Origin: a virus
IMG/VR virus record: IMGVR_UViG_3300025012_000003
Length of the DNA: 64,000 bases
Direction: 5' to 3' (one strand)
The position numbers and the translations under genes were made by a program. Position 1 is the first letter of the stretch; each line of letters begins with the position of its first letter. Under the pieces are notes generated by a model that had not been told where the DNA came from, did not search any database, and saw only the letters and a program-made list of their open reading frames with translations. Below, piece by piece: positions 1,700 to 63,855 of the stretch.

Positions 1700-2284
1700 C
1701 TAAATATATTGCTTAATGTAACAACAATTACATATAGGAAGATATTCTAAATTGTCTCCTTCTATTATATTTACATCTTCCCAGAGTTCACTAGGAAATC
1801 CATTTATCCTTCTGAGTATTTTGGTAGCTCTCTTATCTCCACAGAAAGGACATTCTGAGAACAATCTAGTTATCCTGTCGGCTCTTTCTATAAACATGTC
1901 CATTTTATTAAAAGGAGACCCTTTAAAATCAAATTCCAGTCCAGAAGCTATTATGTTTATCTCGTTATCTAAACAATAATTAACAACATCTCTAAAGAAG
2001 ACTATCCAATCTGTTATAAACTGTACTTCATCTATATAGATAGTTTCTAATTTATATAAGCTATCACTATTTTCATGTTCTTTTATAACTTTTAAAATAT
2101 CTCTCGAGTTATCTATCTTTATCGCTGGGTATTTTAATCCGTTCCTTGAAGTGATAAAACCATCCTCTGTTCTTATATCCACCGAGGGATAAAATACTCT
2201 AAACTCTCCTTCGTCCTCTGATATTTTTTTAATAAGTAACTCACTCTTTCCACTTGCCATTGTTCCCGTAATAATTTCAATCAA
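1700..2284 (-). CDS. tdk: Thymidine kinase
   Basis: GTMASGKS P-loop, IDEVQF, SGLEFDFKGSPF, C-terminal Cys pairs. Confidence 0.93.
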   Translation of the reverse strand: MIEIITGTMASGKSELLIKKISEDEGEFRVFYPSVDIRTEDGFITSRNGLKYPAIKIDNSRDILKVIKEHENSDSLYKLETIYIDEVQFITDWIVFFRDVVNYCLDNEINIIASGLEFDFKGSPFNKMDMFIERADRITRLFSECPFCGDKRATKILRRINGFPSELWEDVNIIEGDNLEYLPICNCCYIKQYI

Positions 2285-2649
2285 TCAACTAACTCCTTTA
2301 AGGTCAGATATTTATTTCTATAGTCAATTTCACTAAAAATCTTTAGGTCTAAATAATTTAAATCTATTTTGGATAAGTTATTGGATATGAATTTATCCAA
2401 TAAATGATTACGGTTCTCTAAAAAGTTCAGTTTAACTACTGATTCTTGCTGAGAATTATTCCCCCAGTATCTAACTATTAGATAATATCCAGATTTTTTA
2501 ATTTCTATAAAAGATTCAATGTGTTCGCATCTCTCATCGTAGTATTTAAAATCAAAACAATCAAGTATATGCTCTATGTATGAAACTGTTCCTATATCAA
2601 GTCTCTTTAACTCAGTCTTATCCTCACTAAACTTCCAAAATTTTCCCAC
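2281..2649 (-). CDS. Hypothetical protein with C-terminal tag (LKELVD)
   Basis: ORF track; overlaps the tdk start; ends TTA AAG GAG TTA GTT GAT TGA. Confidence 0.7.
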   Translation of the reverse strand: MGKFWKFSEDKTELKRLDIGTVSYIEHILDCFDFKYYDERCEHIESFIEIKKSGYYLIVRYWGNNSQQESVVKLNFLENRNHLLDKFISNNLSKIDLNYLDLKIFSEIDYRNKYLTLKELVD

Positions 2650-2679
2650 TTGATTTCTTTCGCATTAACTATTATAATG

Positions 2680-2708
2680 ATTATACCACATGTTACCAGT
2701 TAAGTCAA
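2680..2708 (-). promoter_or_regulatory. Sigma70-type promoter
   Basis: TTGACT-17 nt-TATAAT. Confidence 0.75.
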
Positions 2709-2757
2709 TATTGTTATTTAAACACTTAAAAGTATTGATATTATTGGGTTTACGACT

Positions 2758-2771
2758 TTATATTATAAGTA
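2758..2771 (+). promoter_or_regulatory. Putative late-type promoter motif
   Basis: TTATATTATAAGTA upstream of the plus-strand gene at 2818; identical 14-mer at 24036..24049 upstream of the other plus-strand gene. Confidence 0.5.
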
Positions 2772-2817
2772 CAATAGGCTAGTAATCTGTTATTTTAATA
2801 TAAGGACAATTGAATAT

Positions 2818-4628: not shown

Positions 4629-4681
4629 AAAAACTCCTTATGTATATAATAACATAGGGAGTTAAGACTGTCAATATTAAA

Positions 4682-5395: not shown

Positions 5396-5425
5396 TTGAA
5401 ATTAACTCTTTCATTTAAAATATAA

Positions 5426-5457: not shown

Positions 5458-5496
5458 TAATTCGTATTATCTGGACTCTCCCAGAAGTATTAACCA

Positions 5497-8414: not shown

Positions 8415-8771
8415 TCATAATAACTCCTCTATGTATTTGACCTCTTCGTAGTAATCAGACCCATTTATAGCACATCCTTTCATTTTTTGGATGTACTTCT
8501 TAAGAAAAAATTTAACTTTGGGATTTAACCTTATGAATTCTTCTAAACTAAGACTTTTCTTTTTAACGTTATTACAGGGGGTACAACAAATTAACAAATT
8601 ATTTAAAAATGTATTCCCTCCTGATGATTTTGGAATCACGTGGTCTAAGCTTATCTTTCTTTTTTCGTCAAAAGACCTACCACAATAGCAACATTTAGCA
8701 TTTACTTTACGTGCATAGTCCTTTAACTGCTTCTTAAGAGATTTTATTGGCTTTTTTGGAGTATTGCTCAT
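8415..8771 (-). CDS. HNH endonuclease
   Basis: CCYCG...LDHVIPKSSGG...NLLICCTPCN. Confidence 0.9.
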   Translation of the reverse strand: MSNTPKKPIKSLKKQLKDYARKVNAKCCYCGRSFDEKRKISLDHVIPKSSGGNTFLNNLLICCTPCNNVKKKSLSLEEFIRLNPKVKFFLKKYIQKMKGCAINGSDYYEEVKYIEELL

Positions 8772-10019
8772 CCTACTAATTCCTTAAACATGTTATAACA
8801 ATTCCAAGACTCTTTTTTCATAATAACTTTACTTTCTACAGTCCAAGAAGAAAAAGCTATCTCGGGAGAAAAGGAGTAACTAACAGCACCCGTATTATTT
8901 TTAATGTCCTTTAGTACATTTTCAAAGATATATAGTTTATCCCATTGTTTATTCTTTTCTATTAATTTACCTATTTCTTCTGCAACCAATCTTTTCTCCC
9001 TATTATGATTTTCTAAGATTGTCAAATAGGAGGAGCTAGATTTATTATTAAGTTTTTTTATGAAAGGGATTAAATCCTTTCTAATATCCGCTCTTTTCTT
9101 TCTTAGAACATCTCCAGACCTGTATTGTATTAATTCTCCTTTATCTAGTTTATATATAAATTTAGGAGGAGTTAAATCACAGTCGATAGCTTTCCAAATA
9201 TATCCTCCCGATTCGTGAATGTTTTTTAATCTTATTACATTAAAGTCTAATGTATTTAAGGACTTTTTTAAAGAATTAAGAGATGAATATATAACATATC
9301 TAATTTTATCGTCTTCAGTATATCTATATATCTTCCTCATGATACTAATTCCTCTAACATTTTAATTCCTGTAATATCATCCTCGGAAAGATAAGGCAGA
9401 AAATTATAATTAGTGAGAAGTCTATTATAGGTTAAGCATTTAACTAATTCTTTTCTCATCTCCAATAATGTAGTTTTATTAGTTATTTCATAATTATGTA
9501 TTTTTAAATCATGGACACCCATTAAAGAACGAGATTCGTCGATAAGTTTTAGTTCAAAATTACAGTCAGTATCAAAAAGAATACTGTCTAATCTCATAGC
9601 TCTATAATTAAAACTACCATAGCGATAATGGTCAAATATCTTATCTAGTTCTTTAAAAACATTAAAATCTCTAAGTTCCCTAGAAAATAATCTTTGACCA
9701 TTTATATTTAAAAGTATAAAATCTTTTAACTGCATAGTTCCTTCATACTTCTTTTAGTATAGTATTCTAAACATTCATCCTTTTCAAAGTATTCTCGATA
9801 TCCAGAAATCAGTAATTTTCCAAGATATTGTAGTTTGTTATCACAGAATTTAATGGGAAAATTATTAGTTTTAAATCTATCGTGGAAATTATCTATGTAA
9901 GTACATCTATGGTTATCAGGTACTAAAGGATAAATATTATTTAATTTATTTTGATGCTTCTCTAAATAAACTCTACCACATCTGAAGCATTTGTATATAC
10001 CCACATAGCGACTAACCAT
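8768..10019 (-). other. Three overlapping hypothetical CDS, each with C-terminal tag (MFKELVG, MLEELVS, MKELCS)
   Basis: ORFs 8768..9340, 9337..9735, 9726..10019. Confidence 0.75.
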
Positions 10020-14699: not shown

Positions 14700-15432
14700 C
14701 AGTATCTCCTTCATTAAAATATTTCCACAAATAACCACCTGCTATTTTTCTTTTATTTTTACAAACCTGTCCTATGTTCTGTGCGGGGATGCCGTAAAAT
14801 TTAGATGCTTCTGACATACTTTGAAATACTAAACCTGTTGTTACATTAATTACCCTTTTTCTATTAGGGTTGTTTTTACTAACTTTTATTTTCATTTCTT
14901 CGGTATGTTTATATCCTAGGCAATGTTTATTATTTTTTAAAGCTTCACTTAATTTTATTCTAGTTTCATCTTTGGTTATTCTAAGTTTTCTAGCATTCCT
15001 TAGTTTCACTTTAGTTTCTTCAGTATGAGGAATACCTTTGTTACTAGCATTACGTCCCTTAAGTGCTTTACTTAAATTATTTTTATGCTCATCTGAGAAT
15101 TCAATACCTAAATTACTTTCAGCAATTCCTCTCTTATTATAACCGTATCTTGGATTGTTAGCTTTTAAACTATCTATCCAATATTGCTCTTTTTCCAACA
15201 ATAAATTCTTTAATTGTTCCACATCTTTAGATAATACTATATATTCTAAAACCTCAAATATGAAATTATCTTTCCCGTATTTATTATAAGAACTTTGTAA
15301 ATGTTTATTATGATGTACTCCTCTTTTTAAGTTATCAAAATGTTGTTGTTTTCTACTTTTTAAGCGAGAGGAACTACCAATATAGTATTTACCAGTTACT
15401 GTATTAATTATCTTATAAACACCTTGATTCAT
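14665..15432 (-). mobile_element. Free-standing GIY-YIG homing endonuclease gene (NUMOD3/NUMOD1-type C-terminus)
   Basis: GVYKI..YYIGSS; HTEETK-type repeats; SMSEASKFYG...AGGYLW. Confidence 0.88.
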
Positions 15433-15905
15433 GTTGTTAATTCTTGCATTGATAATCTTGTTAATAATTTATTATAGCATGACAGGTATGTTAAGTCAAT
15501 ATCTTTCTCTTGGATACATTTAAAATCTTTAACATTAATTAATATCTTGTCAAAACTATTATCTAATAGAAATTCCAAGAAAGTATTTGTTATAGTTTCA
15601 TAGGATACATCATTTTTGAATACTATCTTCCATGTTTTTCTATCTTCAAAGGCTAAACATCTCTTATTGAAATAGTGTATTTCATAGATAAAACTATTCC
15701 TAGTTGTATTATTGAATATTTGATAGAGTATAAAAGGATATTGACTTACTCCCAATTCTTGACATCCCATACACTCGGTTAAGAAATCACCACAATAATG
15801 TATTCTCTTAAATTGTTCCTCTGTTCTATGACTTTCATACTTATACTTCAAAAACGAGTACAGAATGCCTATAATTCCGCCTACTATAATTTCATTAAAA
15901 ATCAT
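15429..15905 (-). CDS. Hypothetical protein with C-terminal tag (MQELTT)
   Basis: ORF track; ends ATG CAA GAA TTA ACA ACA TGA. Confidence 0.65.
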   Translation of the reverse strand: MIFNEIIVGGIIGILYSFLKYKYESHRTEEQFKRIHYCGDFLTECMGCQELGVSQYPFILYQIFNNTTRNSFIYEIHYFNKRCLAFEDRKTWKIVFKNDVSYETITNTFLEFLLDNSFDKILINVKDFKCIQEKDIDLTYLSCYNKLLTRLSMQELTT

Positions 15906-16860: not shown

Positions 16861-17448
16861 TTAAAATTTAACTTTACAAGACTTATCTATTCTAGTTAGA
16901 ATACTAACTCCACTAAATTTTTCATCTCCATTCAAGTTCATCAGAGCTTCTACTATACCCACTGCTTCTCCCCTACTATTTAATACTGGACTGCCAGACC
17001 ATCCTTTAGCTATGAAAGAGTCTGAGACAAGATAGTTGTCGGTAACTCCAAATATTTGACCAGAAGAAGAACTAACACAATTGTTAATTTTTATCTTATC
17101 CCCTTTTTTAATGGTACCTATAGAATATGGGGCTATTCCTTCTGTATTTATATTTATGGTGGTTATAGTGTTAGTCAAGTATTTAACCTGACTCTGACTT
17201 ATCAATCTAGCTTTGCCTTTAATATCTATAAAAACATATTCAAAATTATTATTTAAGATATGGGTAGCTGTTATTATTTTATTTTTTCCAACAATAAAAC
17301 CATGACCATAGGCTATATGGTTTTTATCTACTACTCCTATAATTAAAACAATTCTATCGTCCTGACATCTTTTTAGAAGAATATCTTTGGCACAACATTG
17401 GATAGCTAATAAAAAACAAAACAAAATGGATAATAAAATTCTAAACAT
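16861..17448 (-). CDS. Trypsin-like serine protease with signal peptide
   Basis: GFIV...ITATH and GWSGSPVLN..G..VGI. Confidence 0.82.
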   Translation of the reverse strand: MFRILLSILFCFLLAIQCCAKDILLKRCQDDRIVLIIGVVDKNHIAYGHGFIVGKNKIITATHILNNNFEYVFIDIKGKARLISQSQVKYLTNTITTININTEGIAPYSIGTIKKGDKIKINNCVSSSSGQIFGVTDNYLVSDSFIAKGWSGSPVLNSRGEAVGIVEALMNLNGDEKFSGVSILTRIDKSCKVKF

Positions 17449-17499: not shown

Positions 17500-18411
17500 T
17501 TAAAAATTCATGAATTTTTGTAAAGCTTTTTCTACATCATCTACTTCAGAATCATCTAACTCTTTATCATCTATTAAATCTTCTAAATCAGATACTAATC
17601 TATTATATAAAAATCTGGATAATAGTTTATATTGAGCATTGTCATCTTCCCACTCTGGGGTATCAGCACTGTGCTTTCTTCTTATTTCTTTCCAATGTTT
17701 TTTATCTTGAGAAAGGGAGGCTATTTCCTGTTCCATAGAGTCCAATTTATCTTGTAATAAATCTCTTAATTGTATTTTAGTCTCTTCAGGAACTCTTCCC
17801 ATAACATTTCTGAGATACCTATAATCTATCAAATCTCTTCTTAATTTACCGATATCTAAATCTGCATCTTTAGTGAGATACTCTATTTTAGAAAACACGT
17901 CTTTAAATACTTCGTAGGGATTGTATGTATCTTGTTTTAATATTGGTTTTTTAATCCAAGTATTTTGTAGCAGTGAATAAACTCCTATACTTTTTAAATC
18001 TGACTCTTCATCAAACTCTACATACACTTCAAAAGGATGAATACCTGCATACCAATTATTTTCTTCTCTATTATCTTTGTACCACTTCATTACTTTTTTG
18101 GTAAACTCTAAATTATCTTCTCCCTCTATTTGGTCAACATTAGGAATTATATGAATATCTATATCCGATTCATCATCGTATATATTGGATGTTATGGAAC
18201 CTATGATATAAATATCCCTAGATAGTTCAATAAGATTATAATACGGATAAGCTCTTAGTGCTCTAAATATTTTGTTTTTTACGTCTTTTCTAAGGACGTA
18301 ATCTTCATTATCTTTAAAAAACCAAACATCCTCAGAAGGTTTTTCATGAGGAAAGTCTATGGAGGACTCATTTAATCCGCCAATAATGTTTTTAATCTTT
18401 TTTAATGACAT
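17500..18411 (-). CDS. Pol-beta-fold nucleotidyltransferase with N-terminal motif
   Basis: IIGSI...SDIDIHI (GS + DxD); starts MSLKKIKNIIGGLNE. Confidence 0.75.
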   Translation of the reverse strand: MSLKKIKNIIGGLNESSIDFPHEKPSEDVWFFKDNEDYVLRKDVKNKIFRALRAYPYYNLIELSRDIYIIGSITSNIYDDESDIDIHIIPNVDQIEGEDNLEFTKKVMKWYKDNREENNWYAGIHPFEVYVEFDEESDLKSIGVYSLLQNTWIKKPILKQDTYNPYEVFKDVFSKIEYLTKDADLDIGKLRRDLIDYRYLRNVMGRVPEETKIQLRDLLQDKLDSMEQEIASLSQDKKHWKEIRRKHSADTPEWEDDNAQYKLLSRFLYNRLVSDLEDLIDDKELDDSEVDDVEKALQKFMNF

Positions 18412-45983: not shown

Positions 45984-46011
45984 TTTAATCTCCTTTTATT
46001 TAACCTTACCT

Positions 46012-46050
46012 AATTAGTATAGCAAAGAAAAAGGACTTTTTCAAGTCCTA
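46012..46050 (-). promoter_or_regulatory. 39 bp terminator/promoter cassette, copy 1
   Basis: AGGACT-TGAAAA-AGTCCT-TTTTCTTT; TTGAAA-17-TATACT; identical to 50137..50175. Confidence 0.75.
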
Positions 46051-46079
46051 AGTTACATAAGGTTAAGCTATTGTTACAA

Positions 46080-46361
46080 TTAAATTAATTCTATTAGTTT
46101 ATTAAATCTATAGACAAATATTAAATCTTTTGGATTTTCTACCCCTTCAAAATCTGAATTATCTTTAAATATATTTTTAATTTCAGATATTTGATTCTTA
46201 CTGGGTATTCCTTCTATAGAGTAACTTATAGTTACTTCATAGTTTTCTTCTTCGGCATTCTCTAAATTAATGCCCCGCTCTTTTAACTTGTCTCTTAACT
46301 CTTCGATGTATATCTTTAAGTACCCATCTTCGAGTATCTTCTTTAATTTCTTATATGACAT
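46080..46361 (-). CDS. Hypothetical protein with N-terminal motif (MSYKKLKKILE)
   Basis: ORF track. Confidence 0.6.
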   Translation of the reverse strand: MSYKKLKKILEDGYLKIYIEELRDKLKERGINLENAEEENYEVTISYSIEGIPSKNQISEIKNIFKDNSDFEGVENPKDLIFVYRFNKLIELI

Positions 46362-47395: not shown

Positions 47396-50118
47396 TTACT
47401 CCGTTAGTTCTATCAAAGACCTTATTACTTCTATAGATATATCTCTATATTCTTCTGTATTTTTAGGGTTAAAACAATCAGCTACCAAATTTAATACTTT
47501 ATTAAATTTTGAATAGGATTTCTCTCGTGTGTTGTCTATCATGTCTACAGGAATAAATAGTTTAGCAGAAGATTTAAAAGTAAATTCTATGCCAATCCAC
47601 TCACTTTCTGAGTTTTCACTAAATTTACTTATCTTGATAACATATCCAGCTACTTCTTTAGTATCTATTATTCCGTTCCCTATTATATTTATTATCACAG
47701 CACAAGTTCTCTCATCATAGTGTATGTTGTTTTGACTCCTTTACATCTTAAGTATATTTCAAACTTATCATTTATATTAGTTGTAGAGTCATACCTATAT
47801 TTTATAAATCCTACTCCAACACCATAAATAACACTAGAAGTGTGTTGAAGGAATAAAGGTACGTTATTATTTTTCAATACTACTAACACTTTAGAAGCAG
47901 GTTTATTAGCTTGTAGTGTCTTCATCAATTCTCTAGTATCTTTTCCATACTCTATAAGAGTCTTATCTACTCTAGGAATATGTTCTCTAAATAAAACCAT
48001 ATCGAAAGAACTGTTGGCTTCATAGGATATATCTGAATTTTCCACATAAGGATTTATGTAGGTAATAACATTACCCTCCCATATAGCTTCTTCTACCTTT
48101 AAAAATCCTATTAAAGAATCTAATTCTAATCTAAAATTCATCCAATTAGCTCCCACATTGTTAGTCGAGTAGTTAATTCCTCTTCGTTATCAAACTGAAT
48201 GTAAGTAGGATTAATTTTCTTACTTAAATGTATATCGGGTAACATTTTTTGAATCCATTTGTCTTTTTCATTTCTTATAATGACACAATAATCTTTATTA
48301 ACAAATAAGTAAAATTTAGTTTTATCAAACATTAAATCGAAAACACTCATGATACAAGTTCTCTCATAGCTACCAGTTTAATCATGAACTCCCCGTAGCT
48401 TTTAATGTCTTTAAATATTTTTAACTTGCATCCATCTTTTATGTTACTGTTTATAAAATGCTCTGCATCCCAATTATTCATAGTGTTTACTAATTCACAG
48501 TTATGGTCGTAAGCCACGTAACACAGAGAAGTAACATTTTTAATAACATAATATGAATCGTCGTCATATACTACATAAAAATAATTTGGGTTTATATCTT
48601 TTATTTTCCTACTCATATAATCTCCTAATAAAATAGAGTTGTTACCAACTCTGGGGGAAAAAGGGAAAGGGGTTTATTATTTTATTAACTCTTTTATTAC
48701 TCTTTCGTTAGTTATACAATCTTGGTTATGATATCTCTTGCTACTGTACCACATACCCGTTTTTTCTTTAATATTTATACAACTGTTTCCTTTGTCTATC
48801 CATTTTTTACACCCATCACAAACAAAAGATTTTCTACTCTTTTTTACATAAATTACTTGTCTAGCACTCGTATCCATTAAAGTTTTTCTCCGCATAATAT
48901 ACAATGATGATTCATTTGACAAGTGTAGCAAATATTGGTAAATCTTGTTTTGAACTTCTTTTTACAAACTTTGCATTTTACTTCTATGGCTTCTTCCCTC
49001 TTCAAATCTTTCTTTTCGCATTTGTTACACTTCATCTTTATCAAACTTTCTTTTGTTGTACTATAAATATACCACAATTAATTAATTTTTACAAGTATTT
49101 GTAAACTTATTGTTACATTATTCTACTAGTTCTTGCATTGTTTTTCTAATTATATTAAGTTTCTTCATGGTATTATTAGCTTTTCTCTGGAGTCTCGCCC
49201 TATTATACCCAATAAAAGAGATATGTGTTTTATTTTTATCTTTTTTATCCCTCACATACTCTTCCATCTCTCTAATTTTACAAGTAGGAACAAGTCTGGG
49301 GAAATCTTCATCTGTTTTTATTTCTATTCCACTATGGCTTTCTGTAGCTTCCACGGTACATTTAACTCCTACGGAGTACTCTTTGTATTCATCAAGGGTG
49401 AAATATTCAACATAAGCCCTAGATTCTATTTCTTGTTCCATAAATTTATGATTATATTCATCTCTCAATCTATTAGCTTCATAACAAGAAGTAAATATGC
49501 CTACTAATTCGGTAGTTCTGGTAGAGAAACAACCTCCATTATACTTAAGGGAACCATAGTGAACCCACATATTATCAACATCTTCATGAATTAAATATAA
49601 AGTATAAACAACATTATCCATTATTCTACTAGCTCCTGCATTGTTTCATAGTGGGGGAAAGCATCTAAAAATATTTCAGAATGCCATATAATCATACTCA
49701 CTAATTGTTCATATTCTATTTTATTCATGAATTCTTCTTTAGCTTCTTCTAGCATTTCTGCCTTATGTAATGCTCTTGACATTACAGGAGTTAAATTAGA
49801 CTCTGTTTCAAAAACCTTATCAGGAAGTAACTTAAAATTCTTAAAAACATCTTGAGCTATTAGATTAGCCGTGGCTTTAGTAGCTTCTCTTGAAGTAGCC
49901 AGTTTCATTTGTGGATACCCTCCCACAAACCTTGTTCTCATCCTAACTTCAGTATCCCACACACTACGCATAGCCATATCAATAGCCATAACATACTCTG
50001 AAGAATTAGTGGTTTTAACTATAGGTTTAGGAAATTTAATATTATTTTTACCATATAAGTTATTATTGTGAACGTGCCCTAATTTATTTAAGTGCATTCC
50101 AAAAGGCTTTTTACCCAT
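47396..50118 (-). other. Cluster of small CDS, seven tagged (LIELTE, MRELVL, MWELIG, MRELVS, IKELIK, MQELVE twice)
   Basis: ORFs 47396, 47695, 48138, 48347, 48677, 49118, 49621. Confidence 0.75.
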
Positions 50119-50136
50119 ATATTATTTCCTTTCTAA

Positions 50137-50175
50137 AATTAGTATAGCAAAGAAAAAGGACTTTTTCAAGTCCTA
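50137..50175 (-). promoter_or_regulatory. 39 bp terminator/promoter cassette, copy 2
   Basis: Identical to 46012..46050. Confidence 0.75.
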
Positions 50176-50515
50176 GGTCATGAGTATTAAATTATTGTTA
50201 CAAATTATCCTTTAAATCTTTTTTCTTCTTTTAATTCATGTATCATATCATATTTAAGCATTATATCTTTCCATTCTTCATTACCCTCAAACATTTCACA
50301 TCCTATACCATGTCTTCCAGATAGCATAAAACTCTCTGTTTCATTGTATGTAAAAGAACATACATAACAATAGGAAGTAGAAATGGATTTTCCGTTGTGC
50401 CACGGGTGCCCGCACACGAGTCTGTGGTGGATACATTGACAACAACAGCCTATACAGGGCATACCCGTTGAAGGTTCGTAGGTATAGTGAGGAAATTTAT
50501 CTATATTATACTTTT

Positions 50516-52500: not shown

Positions 52501-53169
52501 TTAAAATTCGTAAATATCCCCAGTAACTTCTCTTATTGTAACTTCGAACATCGTAGAATTTTCTGGGGACTCTTCTACTTCCAAAGAGTATTTACCATGT
52601 CTTAGATAATCAGACAATGCTTCTATAAGGTCATCCTTACTTATTCTTTCATTGTTATTGTCTGAAAGTTTATGCCACACTTTATATACATTGGGTAATA
52701 TTCTACTGTATATCAAGTCGTTATCCTTGTCATATTTATCTTTTATTATAACTTTATAGATTCTGTCTTTTACTTCATTAAGTTTTGTTATAGCTCTGTT
52801 AATTCTTATTCTTTCTAAAGTCTCTGAATCTTTCTGACCATTTCCCATATTAGATTCTGGGTCTATAAGAGTTATATCATATCCTTTAGTTGTTTTACTT
52901 ATCCTTACATCGTGGTCATCTTGAGATTGTTTTACAGTATTCAACATATCTTCATTACTTAATTCCGATTCAAAATCAGGTTCATTTCTCTTATATAGAC
53001 TTTTAGCTACATGGAAAGTATCTTTGTCTAATCTCGTATAAACAAAATCAGTATCTCCGCTAGTATTCAGATAGAATACATTTTGTACTTCGGGAAATAC
53101 ATAATCTAATCCTTTTAGAGGAACGTCCGACTTTACATAATCAAGTAATTCTAATATTCTTTTTAACAT
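52501..53169 (-). CDS. Hypothetical acidic protein with N-terminal motif (MLKRILELLD)
   Basis: ORF track; internal twofold repeat (D.DFVYTRL / DNDLIYSRI). Confidence 0.6.
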   Translation of the reverse strand: MLKRILELLDYVKSDVPLKGLDYVFPEVQNVFYLNTSGDTDFVYTRLDKDTFHVAKSLYKRNEPDFESELSNEDMLNTVKQSQDDHDVRISKTTKGYDITLIDPESNMGNGQKDSETLERIRINRAITKLNEVKDRIYKVIIKDKYDKDNDLIYSRILPNVYKVWHKLSDNNNERISKDDLIEALSDYLRHGKYSLEVEESPENSTMFEVTIREVTGDIYEF

Positions 53170-53868: not shown

Positions 53869-55464
53869 TTAATCTTCCAACATATCTAATTGTCTAAGAA
53901 TTGCTTTTATACTTTCATGCCCTAATTTTAACTTCTGTTGGTTGTTTCTCTTGTCTGTTAATATATCCTTATGTTTTTGGAACACCTTCATCACATCTTC
54001 AAAGAATTGTTCAGATTCTTCAAAAGGTTTTTTAAAGTCTTCCATTATATCTTCTATCTTCTCTTCTTGATTTTCGTCTAAGTATATATCATTATATCTT
54101 AAATTCTCATCAGCCATCCACTCTGCATTACTTTCTATGCTTCCTCCAATATCCCCAAAGTCGGATTTTAATTCATAGTATTGAAAAGGAACCCACAAGT
54201 ATTTGAGATAAGAACCGTGAAAATCTTTTTTCTCATATCCAACAATATCTTCTATCTGTTTTATAGTCTCTGGACTTATAACACCGTACCTGTGTAATAG
54301 ATTAACTAAATCCCCGTGCATATCTGGATACAGAGTTAAGAAAGAATCAAGAGATTGTTCTCTCATATTCACGTCAAAGAATTTTTTAACATAACTGGAT
54401 ATTTCCTCATTCTGAGTTAAAGACCTCCAGATGGATTCTTTAGTTTCGTCTGCATAAACGGTGTCTATAAAATCGGCTATGTCGCTATCCATTTCTTTCA
54501 TAAGGTCAGACAACTGAACTTCTTGATAAACCCAATTATCTTTTACTTTAAAAACATACCCTGTAAGTTTATCCATACCATTAGCTATAGCTTCATTGGA
54601 AGGGTCTTTTACTAGCATAAACAATTCAGGGTGCTTCTCCAGATGTTCTTCTGCCACATCTGAAAAGAACTCTTTAAGACCTTCATGTTCAGATAAAAAT
54701 TCAAGTAAACTTACTTCTCTGTCATTTTTATCCATAAACTGTTGAGATTCAAAATGAAATTGATATTTCTCAGAGGGGTCTTGATTATTTATTATTACGT
54801 AGAGGATACCTTGTCCACTATAGGTATCGTAATAATATCTATCTGAGGTAGAAGCAGTACACCATCTGGTACCAGAACCTAAATTACATGATGCTTCATA
54901 GTTGTTAGGAGTCCATACCTGCCATTCTTTATCCTCATAAACCTTATCTGCATTCTGAAAACCTTGTTTTTTTATTTGTCTTTGCTTTTGTTTATTGGAC
55001 AAAGCTAATTCTTGGTCTTGTACAGAGTCTAATCCTACAGCTAAGTCAGGTAATGTCTTGAATTGGAATATATCTTTATTAGGAAATTTCTTTTTATTTT
55101 CTTCGAAGGAGTTTAAGTACTCAGTAACTTTATAGAAATCCTCAGTCTTTAGATTATTAGTAGTCCAAAGTTTTAATATCCATCTGGCATAGTTTCCAGC
55201 AATATCTCCTCCCTTATAGGTAGGGTCGAGATTAACAAGTTTCCAAAACAACCCATTATCAATAGCTGAGTAGTACTTTTTGTACATATCCTCTAAGCCT
55301 TCATTGAAGAATTCTTCAGTTACTTGTTTTAATTTCTTCTTTTTCTTTTTATGTTTCTTAGGGGATTCAGGATAAATAGCAAGATTAGTAGCAGGAGGAT
55401 ATGATATCTCCACATCGCCCTTTAGGATACCCTCGACTATCTCTTTAATCTTACGTAAACTCAT
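53869..55464 (-). CDS. Large acidic phage protein with N-terminal motif; paralog of 43373..44887
   Basis: Starts MSLRKIKEIVE; shares the WCTA and KYQFHFESQQFMDKND block. Confidence 0.7.
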   Translation of the reverse strand: MSLRKIKEIVEGILKGDVEISYPPATNLAIYPESPKKHKKKKKKLKQVTEEFFNEGLEDMYKKYYSAIDNGLFWKLVNLDPTYKGGDIAGNYARWILKLWTTNNLKTEDFYKVTEYLNSFEENKKKFPNKDIFQFKTLPDLAVGLDSVQDQELALSNKQKQRQIKKQGFQNADKVYEDKEWQVWTPNNYEASCNLGSGTRWCTASTSDRYYYDTYSGQGILYVIINNQDPSEKYQFHFESQQFMDKNDREVSLLEFLSEHEGLKEFFSDVAEEHLEKHPELFMLVKDPSNEAIANGMDKLTGYVFKVKDNWVYQEVQLSDLMKEMDSDIADFIDTVYADETKESIWRSLTQNEEISSYVKKFFDVNMREQSLDSFLTLYPDMHGDLVNLLHRYGVISPETIKQIEDIVGYEKKDFHGSYLKYLWVPFQYYELKSDFGDIGGSIESNAEWMADENLRYNDIYLDENQEEKIEDIMEDFKKPFEESEQFFEDVMKVFQKHKDILTDKRNNQQKLKLGHESIKAILRQLDMLED

Positions 55465-55467: not shown

Positions 55468-55953
55468 CTACTCTCTTCCGTCAATAAAAGATTTTAACTT
55501 ACTAACAAAAGGTTTTAGTGTCCTTCTTACTTCCTCTGAGTCGGAGTCAGTACTCATAGAATAATATAGACCGTCTTCTATTTCCTCTAATTCTTTTACT
55601 AAACTAGATAGCTCAGAACTATCCTCGTAGTTGTAGCCTTCATTTACTATCTTTTGTATTTTTTTAAATGACATTTTAAAACCTCAAACTATTCTATTCT
55701 TAGTATACTCTTTTTTAATACGTTCCTTCATTATACCGAATTTGGATTCTCCAAGAGAGGATATCAAGGCATCTTGAATGCCTCTTAAATAATATTTATT
55801 CTTCTCTGATTTATGCTCTCGGTAATCATAGTATGCTTTTCTATATAAGCTTATTGCGGATTTATCCATAGCATCTCTAGTAGGAGTACCTTTATTTGAT
55901 ATCTCCTCAAACAACTTTGTATCTTCTATATTTTTCAATATTTTCTTGAACAT
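55468..55953 (-). other. Two small CDS with N-terminal motif (MSFKKIQKIVNE, MFKKILKNIE)
   Basis: ORFs 55468..55674 and 55684..55953. Confidence 0.65.
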
Positions 55954-56359: not shown

Positions 56360-57486
56360 TCTAGTATTCCCTCAACTAATGCTAAAAACAAATAATTATC
56401 TATTTAAAATATAAATTAATCAATTGTTTTTTGCACATTAATTGGTTAATTCCTGCATCATCCTAATACTTGTTATTTCATCCACACTGTCCAGTTCAAA
56501 TATTTTAATATCGTAGTTTTTTAATCTAAAGCCATACTCAAAATATCCTAACTTACCTTTAAATACTTCTAATAAAAAATTTTCGGTTAGAACAGTATTG
56601 TCTTGTCTTGGATTTCCATAACGATATTCTCTCCATTTACTTTTCTTTCCTCCACAAGTATAAAAGAACCTATACTCTGGGAAAGCAGAAAGGGATTCAT
56701 TCCAATGATTAATTCCAGTCTTCTTATAGCAGTAAACTTTAAGAGGGTTTAAATTTTCAGGAGGTTCTATCTTTCTTATCATCCAATAAGCTCCTGCATC
56801 ATCTTTCTAGCTTCTCTAAACTTATAGGATAATCTAAATCTATGACAATTTTGAGCATTCTTTTCATAACTAGCTTTATGACAAGGTTCTCGTTTATTTT
56901 CGTTATGTTCACATCTTCTGCAAACTTTATAAACACACCTACTAGCATTACATTTAGCTTTTCCACCATTACAACCTATACAACTCATCCTACTAACTCC
57001 CTCATCATTAAATGGTTTTTATATTCAAGGGGAGTCATACACTCATAAGATATCAATTCGTTACTTTCGGTGTATGCTTCTAATACTTGCTGAATACTTG
57101 TATAGCCAGTACGTCTGAATTTACCTTGATAATTATTCAAGATAACAAGATACTTATTTGTACTTTTTTGTTTATATATTAAGATGTCGGGCTTTACATC
57201 ATAATCCCAAGCAGGACTTACTATTAATTTATGGTAGATTGTCATTTCGTAAGTTCTTTCACAGTACAAGTTCCCTCATTATTTTATACTCCTCCACGGC
57301 TTCCCAGAATTCTTCCTTAGTTATCTTAGTCCAATTTCTTTTAGCTAGGATACTTTTACCCTGTGTAGTATTTGTGTAAAACTTTTTTATGCCGTTCAAA
57401 TGATAACTATGGGTTAATCCCCACTCATTTATTAAATGATAACTACCATAACCATCTTTATAGTATTCTGACATTACTCCCTCTTA

Positions 57487-57539: not shown

Positions 57540-57954
57540 CTTTACTTTATAATCTATAGGTAATAATTTTAAATTTAAATTATCATGGATAGGTTATAAT
57601 TTTAAGATACTAACTCCTTCATCATAAAGTAACTGTTGTAATGGGACTCGTTTTCAAACTCTAATAAGTCCATGTGAGGTTTTTCATAATAAACATGAGC
57701 ATAACCAAAATATTTAGTTAGATAAGAAACCAGATGATTTACTTTTAAGCAATGCCATCTACCTTTATCGTCTTTAAGATAGATACCGCTCTTATCTCTT
57801 TTTATAGCCAATTCTTTAAAGTCGTCATTTTTAAATAGTGTGGTAGGGAAAGCTATGGCATAGAATTTACCTTCCTTGAATAGCTCACTGGGAATTTTAT
57901 AATTCTTGGTTATATTAGATAATTTTATCTTTTTCATTTTATTAGTAATCTTAC

Positions 57955-58191
57955 TCATTCCGTTAATTCCTGTATGTGTTTCCACTTAGCCATACTCTCA
58001 TCATCTATGGTTAAACAATCATAAGGGCAATGTTCTACTGCTTTTATTATCTTTAATTCATTACCTTCTACGTTCTGATACTTTATATCTATTAGAAAAA
58101 AAGAATTTGGACTATCTATCAGAAAAACTTCGGGACAATAATACTCACAACGCTTACATAATTGACATTCATCTTTTATATGTATTATCAT
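57955..58191 (-). CDS. Monocluster ferredoxin with C-terminal extension ending in the tag
   Basis: CQLCKRC..CPEVF...HCPYDCL. Confidence 0.8.
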   Translation of the reverse strand: MIIHIKDECQLCKRCEYYCPEVFLIDSPNSFFLIDIKYQNVEGNELKIIKAVEHCPYDCLTIDDESMAKWKHIQELTE

Positions 58192-61100
58192 CTGATAAGT
58201 TCTTCCATAACTTTAATTTTATCTATCTCCTGTTGAATCATAAAGTCTGGCATATCATGAAGTTTTTGGAAGTCTTCCCCGCACAGATTGTAAATTCGTT
58301 CTATTATCTTGAATTTTATCGCATCGAAAGTTATCCTAGATACATGAGAATATAGAAAGGCTGTGTTTATATAATCAAATATCTCTTCTTCATAAGTCTT
58401 CTGGACTATCAATGTTAATAGTTCGGTTCGTAGAGGGTCAACTACACAATCATCCGTCATGAATTCAATACGTATACCACATTGAATTTCACCATGAATA
58501 CTATCAGTTACTTCTATATCTATTCTTGGATTTATCATATTTCTACTTCATTCTAAGGATAGATATAATTCCAGTAACTGTGAATATTGAATAAAAACAA
58601 TAAGCAAATATGAACATTCCCAAACAATTAAAAGATGCAGTAGCCATTCCCATAAATATGGAAAAGATAGGAAATAATAAAAGACTCATAAAGGTATAGA
58701 TTATTACTGCTGTTCTATTACTTTTTAGTTCCTCAGCTACTCTTTTCAACATCTGTTCTTCAGAAGACCAACCATTTCCTACGAAGCCTTCTATACCTTT
58801 AGCTATAGTGAGTATTTTAGTAGCCTTCTCTTCTATCTTTTTGTCATCGATGATTTTATATTTTATTAAATCCACTAATTCTAAAGCTTTATGTACCAAG
58901 CTCAAAGACAATTTAATCATTTTATTCTCCTTCTAATTAACATATATAATAATACCATAAATTAAGTTATTTGTAAAGTGCTTATTAAGATTAATTACTT
59001 AATTCTAACATGACTAGAATACTTTCTAATTCATCTAAACTTTCAAATTCTTTTACAATACTGCATCTCCATTCCTCACGAATAGTTTTTAGTGATTCTT
59101 CTTTACTTATACCCTCCAATAAGGAGTTGGATTTTCTATCTAAACGACATCCATCAAAAGTCAAATATACTTTATCGTCTTTGTATTCGTACACAACCAT
59201 CAGAGGGTCATTTATCCAACCCGCTAATACATAACTCATGATATAAGTTCTTCCATAACTTTAATTGGAATATAATGGATACCTAGCTCTTCTTCAACTT
59301 CCTCCTCGGTTAGGAAAGACCAATCTATCAATTGTTCCAAACTTCGTTTACCATTACCGTATTCAAGTAATTTATCTAATCTTTCATCAGAGACACTCCA
59401 ATTATTTTTATCGAAATAACATTCCAAGATTCCAGACCAAACATTTAATCTATAAAAGGATTTATAATTATAACCATTGTCAAATAAATAATATACGTAG
59501 TCTATGGGTTTCATAAAGTTAGCTCCAACATAGTAAGCATGGCATCTACTCTATCCTCGTCTTCTATTACTTCTCTCTTAATACCTTTTTTAGCGAGATA
59601 TAACATATCATCATAAGATTTTACCCACATTCCATCATCCTGCAATTTTTTATTAGAATAACGCTCAAATAATACATATTTACCTTTTTCGTAAAAATAT
59701 GTAGTATGCTTGATTCCTTCTATTATTTCTATAGTAATAAATCTTCTCATTTTATCATCTTGTCCAAATTATCTAATAAGGATTTTATAACGGGGTCTTC
59801 ATCTTTATCTTCATTCTGAGTTAATTCTCTCATCATGTCAGTCTTGAGTTTAAGATTCTTCTCTCTAATATCGATATAGATATTTATAACGAGAGGTACT
59901 CCAATACAAGCCAATGTCATTATTATATAAACAGTAATTCCTGTCCCTAAAGCTTCCATCATCTCCAATACCACTCATCCCAGACTTCTGATTCGTCTTG
60001 TGTTAATTCATTCATCATTCTTCTCTTAAGCATATCATTTTTGTATTTTCTTTCTTGTATCCAAAAATTAAGCATGCTTATACCCGTGCTTGAAAAACAC
60101 ACAACCCAAGCCCACACGTGGGCTTTCTCGGAATGTAATGAATTGAGATATGCTATTATGGCACAACATACAGTACATTGTATTAAATTAGCGTATCTTT
60201 TTATTTTTTCAATTTGCTTTTCGTTGAAAGTTCGTAACATATTTTAATTAATTCTAACTCTTTCTGTTTTTTCTCATAAAGATATTTAATAAATTCCAGA
60301 GTATTTTTATCACTTGAAACTATGTTGACGTGAATACCAAATCCATCCGAACAAAATGGTTCGTAATCGTAAACAACATAACTATTGTATTTACTTTTCC
60401 ACTCCACTCTTTCTATACTTGCATTTTCTTGACCCACTAGATTAACTAAGTCATCAAGAACTTTCTTATCGGGCACTTCAATTTCTAAACTATGTGTCAT
60501 TTAAATACCTCTTATCTCATATAACTTTTTAAATAAAGGATATAGGATACGAAAGAATAGCTTCTACTATATGAGATATCGTTGCGTATCCCTTACCTAT
60601 TTATAATACTACCATAAAAAAAGAGAGCCGTCAAGACTCTCACAGTAAACATCACATTATTGTTACAATTTATTTTAATGTGGCTATTCGAGAGCCATCA
60701 CTAAAACCAAATTTCTTTTCTTCATTATTCTTAGCTGTCTCCTCGACTTGTCTTTTCTCTGCCTTTTCTGCAAAGAAAATCATCTCGTCCAATAGTTGTT
60801 CAGCATATCCTCCCTCTTTAGCCTCTAGTAGCCACTTTGAAACTTTTTTATCATAAGCTTCTATCTCACTGGAAGCTCTGAATTCCAGTATGCCTTTTAG
60901 AAAATCCGACAATTCCAATCTCCTTTAACTATTAATCTGTTTCAATTCTTTTGGAGGATTTTTAAGGGTCTCCAGTTTTGTACTATACCTATTGAAGGGG
61001 TGAGAACGAAATACAGTCTTACCTTCTTTAAGCTCTTCCACATTATCTATCTTAGTAAATCGTGTCCAAGTACCATCACCATTTTCATAGATAACCATAT

Positions 61101-61332
61101 CGTCGAGATTTTCTTCTAACTTTGATTTTTCTTCTCCAAGTTTATCCATCTCATCTTTTATTTGTTTTAATCTTTCAACTTTATCTTTCATCTTTTTCCT
61201 CCACTTTTTTATAAGGTTTGCTTCCGAGCATCTTATGGAATAACCAAGGAGCTAAACCCCAAGGTAAACTTATTTTATAAAATTCACAGAAGTCCCAAAT
61301 GTATGACCAAATATTATTTTTGAAAGTGAACA

Positions 61333-61632
61333 TTATCCTTTTAATATTCCTATGATGTCTCTTTCAGTAATAATCTTATAAGGCTTCTGGTCTACTTTAA
61401 TTTCTACTCCAGCCATTCTATTAAATACTACGATGTCTCCCACTCTAACTTCAGGCTCTACTCTAGCACCGTTACTTAAGATAAGACCAGCCCCAACAGC
61501 TACAACTTTAGCTTTCTGAGTTGTCTCCTTTACTACGGTAGATTGTGGAAGAACGATACCGCCTTGAGTAATGGCTTCCGTGTCAAAAGGTTCAATAATA
61601 ATTCTATCACCTATTGGTTGTAATTCTGACAT
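61333..61632 (-). CDS. groS: Co-chaperonin GroES
   Basis: LQPIGDRIII..GGIVLP..VVAVGAG..VGDIVVF..ERDIIG; promoter TTGACA-17-TATAAT at 61665..61693. Confidence 0.95.
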   Translation of the reverse strand: MSELQPIGDRIIIEPFDTEAITQGGIVLPQSTVVKETTQKAKVVAVGAGLILSNGARVEPEVRVGDIVVFNRMAGVEIKVDQKPYKIITERDIIGILKG

Positions 61633-61695
61633 AGTGATTTCCTTTCATACTAATATACTTTTACATTATATCATTTTGTGATTCTATTGTCAATC

Positions 61696-62085
61696 CTATA
61701 ACTCTTCTATCTTAATTTTAAATTTATCTTCAAACCAATCCGCAAAGATTCTTCTATGACAGAATTTATTCTTACCTTCATAACATAGAAAAAGATAAAG
61801 ATTCTTTTCATTGTGCATTTGTTTTATTATATCTAATACAGCTCTACCATCGATAGAAGTTTCAAAATAGTTTTCTATTCCTTTTATATACATCTCTTTA
61901 AACTTATCTTTATTTATTGCCCCTGCTTGATATAAATTAAATAGGGTCTGAGACGGATACAGACAAGGAAGTTCCCTCGCTTTGTCTGTAATTTCTCCTC
62001 TAGGAGAAGTCCTAGATATTTTAAACAGTATTGCTTCTTTAGGAAACTTTCTCCAGTTAGCGTAATAGGATGTACAGATAGTCAT
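61696..62085 (-). CDS. DUF488-like protein
   Basis: TSYY..ISR..LYPS..LCYE...FCHRR. Confidence 0.7.
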   Translation of the reverse strand: MTICTSYYANWRKFPKEAILFKISRTSPRGEITDKARELPCLYPSQTLFNLYQAGAINKDKFKEMYIKGIENYFETSIDGRAVLDIIKQMHNEKNLYLFLCYEGKNKFCHRRIFADWFEDKFKIKIEEL

Positions 62086-62330
62086 AAATTAGTCCCTATG
62101 AAATTCGTGGCAGTATCCACAATATTTATTTTCTACATCTTTTGGATGATAAGAAGTCTTGTTACATTTTAAACAAGTTATCCTAAGCATAAATCTTAAT
62201 GTAGAACCTGCCGTGTCTATAAAATATGTTTTCTTATTCTCAACAGCTCTTCTCCTAGGAATACCATATATCCATGACATTAGGAGTAAAAAAGATATAG
62301 AAAATATTAATAAGAATACTATAAAAAATG

Positions 62331-63855
62331 TCATGATACTAACTCCCTCAATGTCATATAAGAAGTAAAATGGTCTTCGTCTATTTCCTCTAACGATGTA
62401 TAAGATGATTTCATAGGTATCCCAGAATGCTCCCAACTATGTTTAACTTCGTCCCAAAAGTATAGAAACCCAGTTGGAGAGGTTCTATAATAAGAGGAGC
62501 CTAGATTAGTTGTATATTTGAAATATTTAACCACTTACAAGTTCTTTCATTATTCTTAATTTTTCTATGTCATGAGTGTTATCTATTATCTTATAACCCA
62601 TGTGAACTTCTAAAAATTCTTTTTTACCATACTCATATATATCTGTACCATGGTAGATAATATGCCAAATATTTCCCCAGATTCTTCCAGTTTTAGCATC
62701 TACTTTGTCTCCAGCAACCCTAGCTAAAGAATTACCGTCTATTTTAACTATCATGACTTTTCCATCTGGGTCATGTACTAAGTAAAAAGGTTTTCTTCTA
62801 TCAGCCATCTTTTCTCTTCCTAGTACGTTTTGGTTTAGGTGGATTGTCCCTTTCCCATAACAGCTCTGACAGAAAATAATAATCTCTACAATATACTTGG
62901 TCGGGGTCTATGCCTTTTTTCTCACAATCTTTGATAAATTCTTTAATACAATTTTCATAGAATTGAAATTCTTTCGGATATTTCTCTTGTTTATATCTAA
63001 ACATTTCTATATGTGTAGGAATTTTAACGTCTACGGGTTTTGCATCCATTACTATTTCCACTTCTACTATTTCTAATTCATCAGCTTTATAGTAATGGGT
63101 TGGGGTAGAATAATCAGCATTAAACCACTCCGTACTATTTCTACGTACCCATTCTGCATGTTCAGGAGTCATAGACATCCAACAATTTATATTGTCTTTA
63201 TCTACCTCTATTATATACTGGAACTCTCCACAGAAATCTCCTCCCTCGTTAGAGGAGAGTCTTACTTTTAAGAATTCATTTTTAACTTTATGTCTTAGTC
63301 TATACTCTTTCACGGTTCCTGCCAGTCTTCACAAAACTCTTGTTCTATGTTAGTAATAATATTTTCTTCCACAGAACAAGTACCGTCTAAATAATGCTTA
63401 CAATTCTTACAACAGAGTTTCATGTTAATCTCTGTAAGTAATGAAGAAAGTTACGATATAGGAATTAGCTTGATTGTAGGGAGATTTAATTCCTTCTATA
63501 TTACTTTGTATTCCCAACACCGATTCTTCTGGGATATTAAATCTTGTCAATATTTCGTTCAAAGTCTCCGTAAGATTTTCATTATTAACATGATTCTTTA
63601 CATTAACTGCCTCTTTTACAACTTTAATCACAATATCTCCTCTGTTAATTCTTTCATAACTCTCATTTTATCTCGATATTCATAATCCGATGCTTTGATA
63701 TCTATTACCTCATCAAGGATACCATACATCCACATCTCGTTAAATAAGTCTAAGCCATAAGAGTCTAATCTCCGTCTCATAGCTTCTTCTATATGTTCTC
63801 TCTCCCTGTTAGGGAGAGTTCCTTTTCTTTTATAATCTTCAGAAAAACTATTCAT
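62331..63855 (-). other. Cluster of small CDS, three tagged (LRELVS, MKELVSG, MKELTEEIL)
   Basis: ORFs 62331, 62527, 63628. Confidence 0.7.

Follow-up and report, generated by a model that had tools for sequence, protein, structure and literature searches.

Short, acidic-hydrophobic peptides at the extreme C-terminus bring different proteins to one hub in several well-known systems, among them the clamp-binding tails of T4/RB69 gp43, gp33 and gp55, the SSB tail, the EEVD-TPR pairing and the cargo-loading peptides of encapsulins, each with few clients. In T4-type phages, the T-even internal proteins form a diverse, fast-changing accessory set sharing only a short targeting peptide (PMC3012670). 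Two further reports describe PeSL promoter-terminator cassettes, in which a promoter and a stem-loop mediate modular shuffling in T4-type phages (PMC2839356, PMC4122927), and a third describes a C-terminal translocation signal, the 'E Block', on Legionella Icm/Dot substrates (PMC3096851). The present analysis concerns a 64,000-nucleotide stretch of phage DNA (hereafter the window), namely the opening 64 kb of a viral contig of 190,151 bp (IMG/VR record IMGVR_UViG_3300025012_000003) that has direct terminal repeats and is rated complete. Many of its minus-strand genes encode otherwise unrelated proteins that end in a common peptide, Met-x-Glu-Leu and a few further residues, which is referred to below as the tag.

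Tags were counted among simple longest-ORF (open reading frame) gene calls with a strict pattern, M-x-E-L-[VITLSC]-x(0-3)-stop, and with a loose pattern allowing [MLIVF] at the first position. Between positions 2281 and 63855, 34 strict and 48 loose tags were found on 127 called minus-strand genes, which bears out an initial sequence-only reading of the window that had noticed about 50 minus-strand ORFs sharing a C-terminal motif. The whole genome contains 71 strict and 101 loose tags in 349 genes, compared to 0.22 and 1.6 expected per 349 genes if the pattern were as frequent at C-termini as inside proteins. The enrichment survived both controls, as shuffling of the last 30 residues (mean 0.19 strict, 1.7 loose) and a set of 547 non-gene ORFs (3 strict, 7 loose) gave only background numbers. 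The counts are conservative because a few tagged ORFs, such as 62331-62534 with its LRELVS end, were dropped by the gene caller.

Tagged genes are confined to the small-gene half of the contig (0-103 kb), with the exception of two at 184-185 kb, and are absent from the replication and structural genes at 104-184 kb. Their median length is 99 aa, uninterrupted runs of them reach 22 genes, and 77% abut or overlap the next gene, compared to 54% of the untagged genes in the same region. Their products diverge faster than untagged neighbours (median identity 87% vs 92%). The promoters preceding them are sigma-70-like (TTGACA-N17-TATAAT) and not TATAAATA late motifs, which suggests early expression. 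The most frequent last residues of the tag are S (28), G (17), N (16), E (8) and D (7). Recognisable core enzymes mostly lack the tag, as had been anticipated: RtcB, the RNA ligases and thymidine kinase are untagged, and the tag-like LYELI with which the Rnl1-like ligase ends is probably fortuitous. Complete internal tags were also observed in two minus-strand genes (L001), at contig 66309-66695 (...EITEEEANSIMIMRELVD) and 77142-77420 (...MMRELTE). These genes continue 53 and 18 residues past the tag, and look like products of read-through or of fusion after stop-codon loss.

Selection acts on the tag as a peptide and not on the underlying DNA or RNA, a conclusion on which codon choice, divergence, invariance of Glu-Leu, anchoring to the stop codon and the behaviour of uncoupled genes agree. 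Both Glu codons and several Leu codons are in use, as first noticed from the sequence alone. In 101 tags, Glu is encoded by GAA 65 times and by GAG 36 times (73/27 genome-wide), and Leu by TTA (42), CTT (20), CTA (18), TTG (12), CTG (7) and CTC (2), near genome usage. The phage (G000) was compared with a colinear relative (G001; 158.5 kb, ~85% nucleotide identity) that contains 106 tagged genes. The tag is kept in 86/87 tagged orthologs, and across these 86 pairs 19 synonymous changes and no replacement were found at Glu, and 33 synonymous changes and no replacement at Leu; body positions of the same pairs show 20-30% replacements. The proposed protein-level conservation is thus supported by synonymous-only change at both residues, and third codon positions were not constrained like first and second positions. 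When Glu and Leu were left free in the search pattern (M-x-?-?-[VIT]-x-stop), Glu-Leu was recovered in 57/57 cases in the phage and in 58/58 in the relative, with no conservative substitution.

The position of the motif points the same way. The tail after Leu is two residues long in all junction classes (ATGA overlap, TAATG, small gaps and large gaps), and the full motif is retained by 17 tagged genes whose stop codon has no start nearby (within 30 nt). The genes at 18581, 36365, 48677, 49118, 56438, 57602 and 58991, listed earlier as lacking a coupled downstream gene, are indeed among these 17, with no ORF start (at least 40 aa) within 30 nt of the stop. An embedded ribosome-binding site therefore cannot fully explain a motif that is kept in uncoupled genes and anchored to the stop. 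GGAG spanning the x-Glu codons is present in only 22/101 tags, in line with the earlier remark that roughly half the copies lack AGGA/GGAG. A ribosome-binding site overlapping the Glu codon is real but secondary, and its bias is limited to synonymous positions of coupled genes. Coupled tagged genes (n = 84) lean towards the junction form NNG-GAG ... NNA-TGA: 39% of them use GAG for the Glu and 55% have a G directly before that codon, while the uncoupled genes (n = 17) show 18% and 29%, respectively, equal to baseline. This bias places GGAG or GGAA 8 nt ahead of the overlapping ATG, where the usual GGAG-start spacing range is 5-8 nt. The enrichment of the tag was not accounted for by embedded ribosome-binding sites or by ATGA/TAATG overlaps.

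Alignment on the motif gave the extended consensus phi-x-E-phi-[TS]-x-E-E-phi-[DEN]-x-phi-[LKR]-x-M-x-E-L-[VIT]-[SGN]-stop (phi, hydrophobic residue), which reads as a short strand followed by a capped amphipathic helix, put at 14-15 residues in this alignment and at 15-22 residues for the tag module in general. A Thr/Ser N-cap, an acidic first turn (T/S-x-E-E) and a C-cap residue (G/N/S or K) can be recognised, and the amphipathic helix suspected ahead of the motif is thereby corroborated. AlphaFold, supplied with 86 small tagged proteins as the alignment for an 82-aa protein, returned a compact alpha/beta model with a predicted local distance difference test score (pLDDT) of 68.6, in which the terminal strand and helix score 84-88. 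For the 125-aa protein encoded at 25585-25962, modelled with 108 family homologues, the pLDDT was 93.4 and that of the tag helix (residues 108-122) ~95. Foldseek found no significant PDB match for either model, and a look-alike search of the ESM Atlas gave nothing usable.

The proteins that carry the tag have no body in common. All-against-all BLASTP of the tagged proteins linked few pairs, and with the last 24 residues removed, iterative phmmer/hmmsearch profile searches linked tagged bodies only to their own G001 orthologs, as expected from the earlier statement that the tagged ORFs share no body. Pfam placed one tagged body in Fer4_13 and one in HNH (a weak match, possibly chance). Neither Pfam nor PHROGs contained a family common to the 86 tagged proteins, no shared family emerged from 10 tested singly, and the two libraries recognised almost nothing among the tagged proteins. 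The recognisable bodies are diverse and comprise a single-cluster ferredoxin, Cys-rich zinc-ribbon-like proteins and one protein with a membrane-spanning stretch. The ferredoxin gene (57955-58191) has a helix of ~13 residues appended, and a homologue search with its product matched only the protein itself.

The most informative body is the product of gene 25585-25962, a member of a widespread, unnamed family of ~110 aa with 2,096 relatives at E <= 0.001 and a core ending ...KHGGI(D), here termed the HGGID family. Its conserved pattern is RP..C.DGF..SVQ...HYC.PR...E.GFPS...TVYGYVP...KHGGI; the family is without a Pfam match, and its confident AlphaFold model (pLDDT 93) is without a solved-fold match. 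Among the best 150 representatives, ~145 end shortly after ...HGGI(D) with unrelated tails and no tag, in line with the suggestion that homologs elsewhere might lack the extension. About 5 of the 150, on phage-like contigs, are tagged, including P0122, P0163, P0245 and P0203; an ortholog in the related lineage L039 is tagged as well. Because nearly all relatives end without it, the tag is regarded as an add-on to pre-existing domains.

A profile of the 86 tagged proteins found no match at E <= 0.001 among 5.8 billion proteins, a null result that says nothing on rarity because true members score only 15-29 bits and profile searches cannot detect the module. Back-translated tag patterns matched in IMG/VR only within this clade, apart from single chance matches. 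The literature searched held no description of such a C-terminal tag, and with nothing like it in Pfam or PHROGs either, the original impression that its form is undescribed was upheld.

The codons of the tag also serve as crossover points. In a comparison of the phage with G001, ~10 whole-gene indels or replacements had both ends within 30 nt of tagged stops, and the flanking alignments at these indels overlap by 3-34 nt. Two hybrid tags were observed: MMDELVND and a neighbouring gene ending MLNELVN in the phage correspond to a single MMDELVN in G001, and AMRELVS and a gene ending TMWELIG correspond to a single AMRELIG. The crossover element is coding sequence, read in frame as the 5-20 C-terminal residues of the upstream gene product; recombination between tag codons therefore inserts or deletes a single gene in frame and leaves the ribosome-binding site and start of the following gene intact. 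One stretch of 15-20 nt is thus a selected peptide, an overlap with the ribosome-binding site of the next gene and a crossover point. Whatever the function of the tag, this triple use shows how large phages can renew their accessory genes fast while reading frames and translational coupling stay intact. The tagged genes of the window, identified from the ends of ORF translations, are as follows (each ending stands directly before the stop codon).

2281-2649, minus strand: 122-aa gene ending LKELVD
8415-8771, minus strand: 118-aa HNH endonuclease gene (weak match, possibly chance) ending IEELL
8768-9340, minus strand: 190-aa gene ending FKELVG
9337-9735, minus strand: 132-aa gene ending LEELVS
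9726-10019, minus strand: 97-aa Cys-rich gene ending MKELCS
15429-15905, minus strand: 158-aa gene ending MQELTT
18581-18943, minus strand: 120-aa gene ending LKELID, no coupled downstream gene
18946-19530, minus strand: 194-aa gene ending LLELTGS
20787-21005, minus strand: 72-aa gene ending MRELLD
21002-21568, minus strand: 188-aa gene ending MIRELT
22016-22612, minus strand: 198-aa gene ending MQELVED
22616-22909, minus strand: 97-aa gene ending LSELCD
25305-25598, minus strand: 97-aa gene ending MEELIS
25585-25962, minus strand: 125-aa HGGID-family gene ending TMMELVDETC (longer tail)
31375-31698, minus strand: 107-aa gene ending MLNELVN, absent from G001, deletion ends inside tag codons
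31691-31924, minus strand: 77-aa gene ending MMDELVND, hybrid tag MMDELVN in G001
31921-32229, minus strand: 102-aa gene ending MGELIG
32226-32483, minus strand: 85-aa gene ending MIELVS
32769-33053, minus strand: 94-aa gene ending MQELVG
33055-33828, minus strand: 257-aa gene ending MIELTAG
34168-34539, minus strand: 123-aa gene ending MKELSE
34539-34934, minus strand: 131-aa gene ending MEELTN
34931-35251, minus strand: 106-aa gene ending MEELVG
35248-35604, minus strand: 118-aa gene ending MQELVS
36365-36706, minus strand: 113-aa gene ending MSELTG, no coupled downstream gene
37632-37958, minus strand: 108-aa gene ending MKELIN
37961-38362, minus strand: 133-aa gene ending MNELVN
38352-38693, minus strand: 113-aa gene ending MRELINDN
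38693-38992, minus strand: 99-aa gene ending MLELTT
46080-46361, minus strand: 93-aa gene ending LIELI, no coupled downstream gene
47396-47698, minus strand: 100-aa gene ending LIELTE
47695-48156, minus strand: 153-aa gene ending MRELVL
48138-48350, minus strand: 70-aa gene ending MWELIG, absent from G001, deletion ends inside tag codons
48347-48616, minus strand: 89-aa gene ending MRELVS, hybrid tag AMRELIG in G001
48677-48931, minus strand: 84-aa gene ending IKELIK, no coupled downstream gene
49118-49621, minus strand: 167-aa gene ending MQELVE, no coupled downstream gene
49621-50118, minus strand: 165-aa gene ending MQELVE
56438-56782, minus strand: 114-aa gene ending MQELTN, no coupled downstream gene
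56779-56988, minus strand: 69-aa Cys-rich gene ending MQELIG
56985-57269, minus strand: 94-aa gene ending MRELVG
57259-57474, minus strand: 71-aa gene ending MRELVL
57602-57985, minus strand: 127-aa gene ending MKELVS, no coupled downstream gene
57955-58191, minus strand: 78-aa single-cluster ferredoxin (Pfam Fer4_13) with appended helix, ending ...DDESMAKWKHIQELTE
58188-58538, minus strand: 116-aa gene ending MEELIR
58991-59239, minus strand: 82-aa gene ending MLELSN, no coupled downstream gene
59236-59514, minus strand: 92-aa gene ending MEELIS
59511-59750, minus strand: 79-aa gene ending MLELTL
62331-62534, minus strand: 67-aa ORF ending LRELVS, dropped by the gene caller (overlaps neighbour)
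62527-62808, minus strand: 93-aa gene ending MKELVSG
63628-63855, minus strand: 75-aa gene ending VMKELTEEIL (four-residue tail after the tag)

Tags were also found in related lineages. L039 (ENA; GC content 28%), which encodes a leucine-rich-repeat (LRR) protein 44% identical to one of the phage, contains ~21 small ORFs that end M-phi-x-E-L-x-K-stop after T-x-E-E helices. The final Lys is kept across stop and junction types, and rare ACG and TCG codons are used to form GGAG. L118, from another metagenome, has tags of the same type as the phage, and L117 has a looser form, K-Y-phi-phi-phi-x-x-L-x-x. Cross-lineage orthologs of the phage and L039 agree in their tag state: one pair carries the tag in both members and three pairs in neither. 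The LRR gene of L037 (ENA ERZ15610580 NODE_548), a related T4-like contig, matches its database protein only when TGA is read as Trp, which suggests a relative using genetic code 4 or a recoded phage.

A second shared peptide was observed at the opposite, N-terminal end in another group, comprising about 13 proteins without the tag. They open with a basic leader of the pattern M-[FS]-x-K-[KR]-I-x-x-phi-phi-x-E, as in MFKKILKLVNE and MSFKKIQKIVNE, and none of them belongs to the tagged set. In the window they are encoded at 17500-18411, 27091-28092, 28094-28801, 42479-42745, 52501-53169, 53869-55464, 55468-55674 and 55684-55953, and beyond it at contig 72.2, 156.2 and 162.4 kb. By its sequence the leader resembles the T4 capsid targeting sequence (CTS) with its phi-x-E cleavage site.

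The explanation tentatively favoured, at somewhat less than an even chance, is that the tags, as portable helices, all dock on a single partner of phage or host origin. It is drawn mainly from the lack of any conservative Glu-Leu substitution across more than 100 unrelated bodies, and is supported by the Met preference, the fixed distance to the C-terminus, the lineage-specific tails and the add-on behaviour. The tag, a portable C-terminal helix, marks ~30% of the proteome, namely the small, fast-evolving proteins of the small-gene half. Its hydrophobic stripe closes with Met-x-Glu-Leu-[Val/Ile/Thr], after which exactly one residue comes before the stop. On the docking reading, one partner would accommodate the invariant Glu-Leu together with the Met and the free C-terminus and would treat all tagged proteins alike, for instance by removing them at a set time, recruiting them to a hub or delivering them to one place. 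Removal of accessory proteins at a set time and hub recruitment seem the likeliest outcomes of docking; capsid loading is less likely because a separate T4-like N-terminal leader class exists and tagged genes have sigma-70-like promoters.

Candidate readers encoded by the phage were considered and dropped. The first is an S1B-type serine protease (16861-17448, minus strand, 195 aa) with a chymotrypsin fold of the staphylococcal Spl/V8 type, a GWSGSP motif and SplA-F as best PDB matches. It has a hydrophobic, signal-like N-terminal leader and therefore probably acts outside the cytoplasm. Its gene has its own consensus sigma-70-like promoter, and the protease is apparently an exported, early phage product. 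The second candidate was a pair of paralogous LRR proteins of ~500 aa (43373-44887 and 53869-55464, minus strand), the relatives of which carry BspA-type repeats (LRR_5/LRR_8). These are more likely virion proteins because of the TATAAATA motif of the first, the CTS-like leader of the second and homologues that, in related T4-like contigs, adjoin terminase and portal genes. The third was a MoxR-like ATPase with a DUF2201 VWA/metallopeptidase partner, which adjoins two tagged genes at contig 184.6-185.4 kb; such pairs are common in phages without tags.

Several observations weigh against a docking helix. A search for a reader among the phage proteins revealed no ClpP and no clear AAA+ unfoldase, and the cytoplasmic candidates that can be named have other likely roles. 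The Glu codon doubles as a Shine-Dalgarno core, which accounts in part for Glu being invariant. The ordered tag helix in the AlphaFold models (pLDDT 84-97) would fit packing on its own body rather than a free arm, and the caps that the consensus indicates at both helix ends are expected of any merely stable helix.

High AlphaFold confidence in the tag helix keeps alive the strongest rival, a self-packing structural role, although it is judged unlikely. The helix would fold on its own body, stabilise small proteins or shield their C-termini from host proteases, and spread via cassette recombination without any common partner. An ordered helix that follows a conserved strand (phi-x-E-phi) and has the N-cap, the acidic first turn and the C-cap typical of intrinsic stability would be expected on this account; crossovers inside tags would explain the spread, and in untagged HGGID-family homologues a short D-K-T-F tail is already present, of which the tag is an extension. 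However, a helix packed on ~100 unrelated surfaces should accept I, V, M or F in its core positions, yet Glu-Leu is invariant in both genomes and Met strongly preferred. The tag also ends two residues past Leu even where no downstream gene imposes a constraint, and most HGGID-family members, like typical ferredoxins, fold without it.

The tagged proteins might instead form one hugely diverged paralogue family, derived by tandem duplication from an ~80-aa ancestor of which only the C-terminal strand and helix are still recognisable. The long runs of similarly sized genes and the compact alpha/beta model of moderate confidence obtained from the 86 proteins are consistent with such an origin. It is nonetheless improbable, as tag-stripped bodies show no similarity in iterative searches, the set includes a ferredoxin, a membrane protein and zinc-ribbon-like proteins, and one member belongs to a widespread and otherwise mostly untagged family. 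The ferredoxin and the HGGID-family protein already point, by sequence, to different folds among the tagged bodies. Common descent may hold for a subset of the tagged proteins but cannot be the whole explanation.

Action as a nascent peptide is more doubtful still. The last ~20 residues, held in the exit tunnel of the ribosome, would slow release at the stop codon and favour re-initiation at the next gene. The length of the conserved stretch (~22 aa) corresponds to what the tunnel holds, the distance from motif to stop is fixed, and tagged genes more often abut or overlap the next gene. Nevertheless, the 17 genes with no nearby start retain the full motif, two tags are internal with 18-53 residues after them, and the capped amphipathic pattern is that of a folded helix. 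To our knowledge, no known arrest peptide resembles the tag.

A capsid cargo signal or prohead-protease site has an equally poor chance. The phi-x-E in the tag (M-x-E|L) and before the helix would be cut by the S77 protease, and the helix would load proteins into proheads for injection. The phage does encode an S77 prohead protease and a separate set of proteins with T4 CTS-like N-terminal leaders ending phi-x-E, and a targeting peptide is all that unites the diverse, defence-countering internal proteins of T-even phages (PMC3012670). The tag, however, is C-terminal, and a cut after M-x-E would take off only three residues. Tagged genes lack the late TATAAATA motifs, the N-terminal leader class is already present without overlap, and ~100 cargo species would be unprecedented. 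Finally, the notion that the motif is a by-product of embedded ribosome-binding sites and ATGA/TAATG overlaps, with the constraint on RNA, is scarcely credible and largely refuted: the spacing of the Glu codon from the overlapping ATG, the GAG and preceding-G bias of coupled genes and the rare codons forming GGAG in L039 fit it, but third positions are free at Leu and Glu, nothing at the RNA level would call for Met, Leu or the upstream acidic helix, and the motif follows the stop rather than the next start and persists without a coupled gene.

Beyond the docking helix itself, a broader generalisation is possible but doubtful, namely that large phages may address their proteins by a code that spans the proteome. 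A C-terminal helix particular to each genome, carried by a third of the proteins (the fast-evolving accessory ones), would be recognised by one dedicated reader and lead to a common fate such as timed destruction, recruitment or delivery. The same codons would form a universal, translationally coupled in-frame junction at which recombination plugs new genes into the array, and the L039 and L117 variants would be versions of one general, undescribed principle in the organisation of phage genomes. If one reader does serve ~100 accessory proteins, most 'dark matter' genes of a large phage would be under one control point. The tag would then be a handle with which to pull down the reader, predict programme membership of unknown proteins and route tagged foreign proteins.

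The phage has a GC content of ~30%, carries nearly all of its ~350 genes on the minus strand and is, by its predicted proteins, a distant T4-type phage with an S77 prohead protease and a portal ~30% identical to those of T4-like Rhizobium phages. No close isolated phage was found for the 190-kb genome; some metagenome contigs are near-identical to it and others ~85% identical. Its replication genes include a family A DNA polymerase and a DnaB-like helicase, and RtcB, two RNA ligases, PTH2 peptidyl-tRNA hydrolase, 15 tRNAs and a permuted tmRNA constitute a large translation-repair kit. An intein containing a LAGLIDADG homing endonuclease (Hint, Hom_end) splits the 974-aa protein, probably the large terminase, that is encoded beside the portal gene (L006:7263-10187, contig ~165.3-168.2 kb), and inteins in terminase and in ribonucleotide reductase are also present on related contigs. 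A recurrent motif, TTGTAACAAT(A), stands directly after stop codons in 17 intergenic regions genome-wide (in the window at ~45990-46080, 48935-49118, 50120-50205 and 60500-60670, for example). In most cases a GC-rich hairpin (...CTTGAAA...) comes next, and the motif is possibly terminator-associated or part of a middle promoter.

Compared with known systems, the tag shares with the T4 CTS the use of a short conserved peptide as the only feature common to diverse accessory proteins. The CTS is N-terminal, ~10 residues long, basic, cleaved at L/I-x-E and present on a handful of proteins, whereas the tag is C-terminal, acidic, helical and present on ~100 proteins whose genes have sigma-70-like promoters. 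PeSL elements resemble the tag codons in that boundary sequences of variable regions act as whole-gene crossover points between close relatives. They are non-coding regulatory DNA conserved at the nucleotide level, in contrast to tag codons, which are coding, conserved as peptide, free at synonymous sites and able to leave in-frame hybrid ends. The Icm/Dot signal, sought in that study in the C-terminal parts of the substrates, is loosely defined, common to hundreds of unrelated proteins and read by one machine. Its 'E Block' is reportedly a Glu-rich stretch ~10-17 residues from the C-terminus. That signal is degenerate, bacterial and serves type IV secretion, while the tag keeps invariant residues at a constant spacing from the C-terminus, and no sign of secretion machinery was seen.

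The ssrA tag is likewise a C-terminal peptide, and one that decides the fate of a protein. It is added by trans-translation and has a non-polar end, whereas the phage tag is gene-encoded, with a Glu that never varies and with S, G or N (in L039, K) as its last residue; the non-polar, LAA-like C-terminus of an ssrA-like degron (ClpXP, Tsp or FtsH type) was not found in tagged proteins. The permuted tmRNA of the phage (L001:8296-8497, minus strand, contig ~71.3 kb, 7.3 kb past the end of the window) closes the 15-tRNA array and matches Rfam RF04321 (98 bits, E 3e-19), and its tag peptide as read by ARAGORN is GNNTVSLDFGRKMALVA. This predicted peptide ends ...RKMALVA and has M..LV in common with the motif, a resemblance too short to weigh. 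From the docking peptides that bring different proteins to one hub, the tag differs both in its motif, which is neither of the SLDFLF type nor of the GSL type, and in its reach, which extends to a third of the proteome where those systems have few clients.

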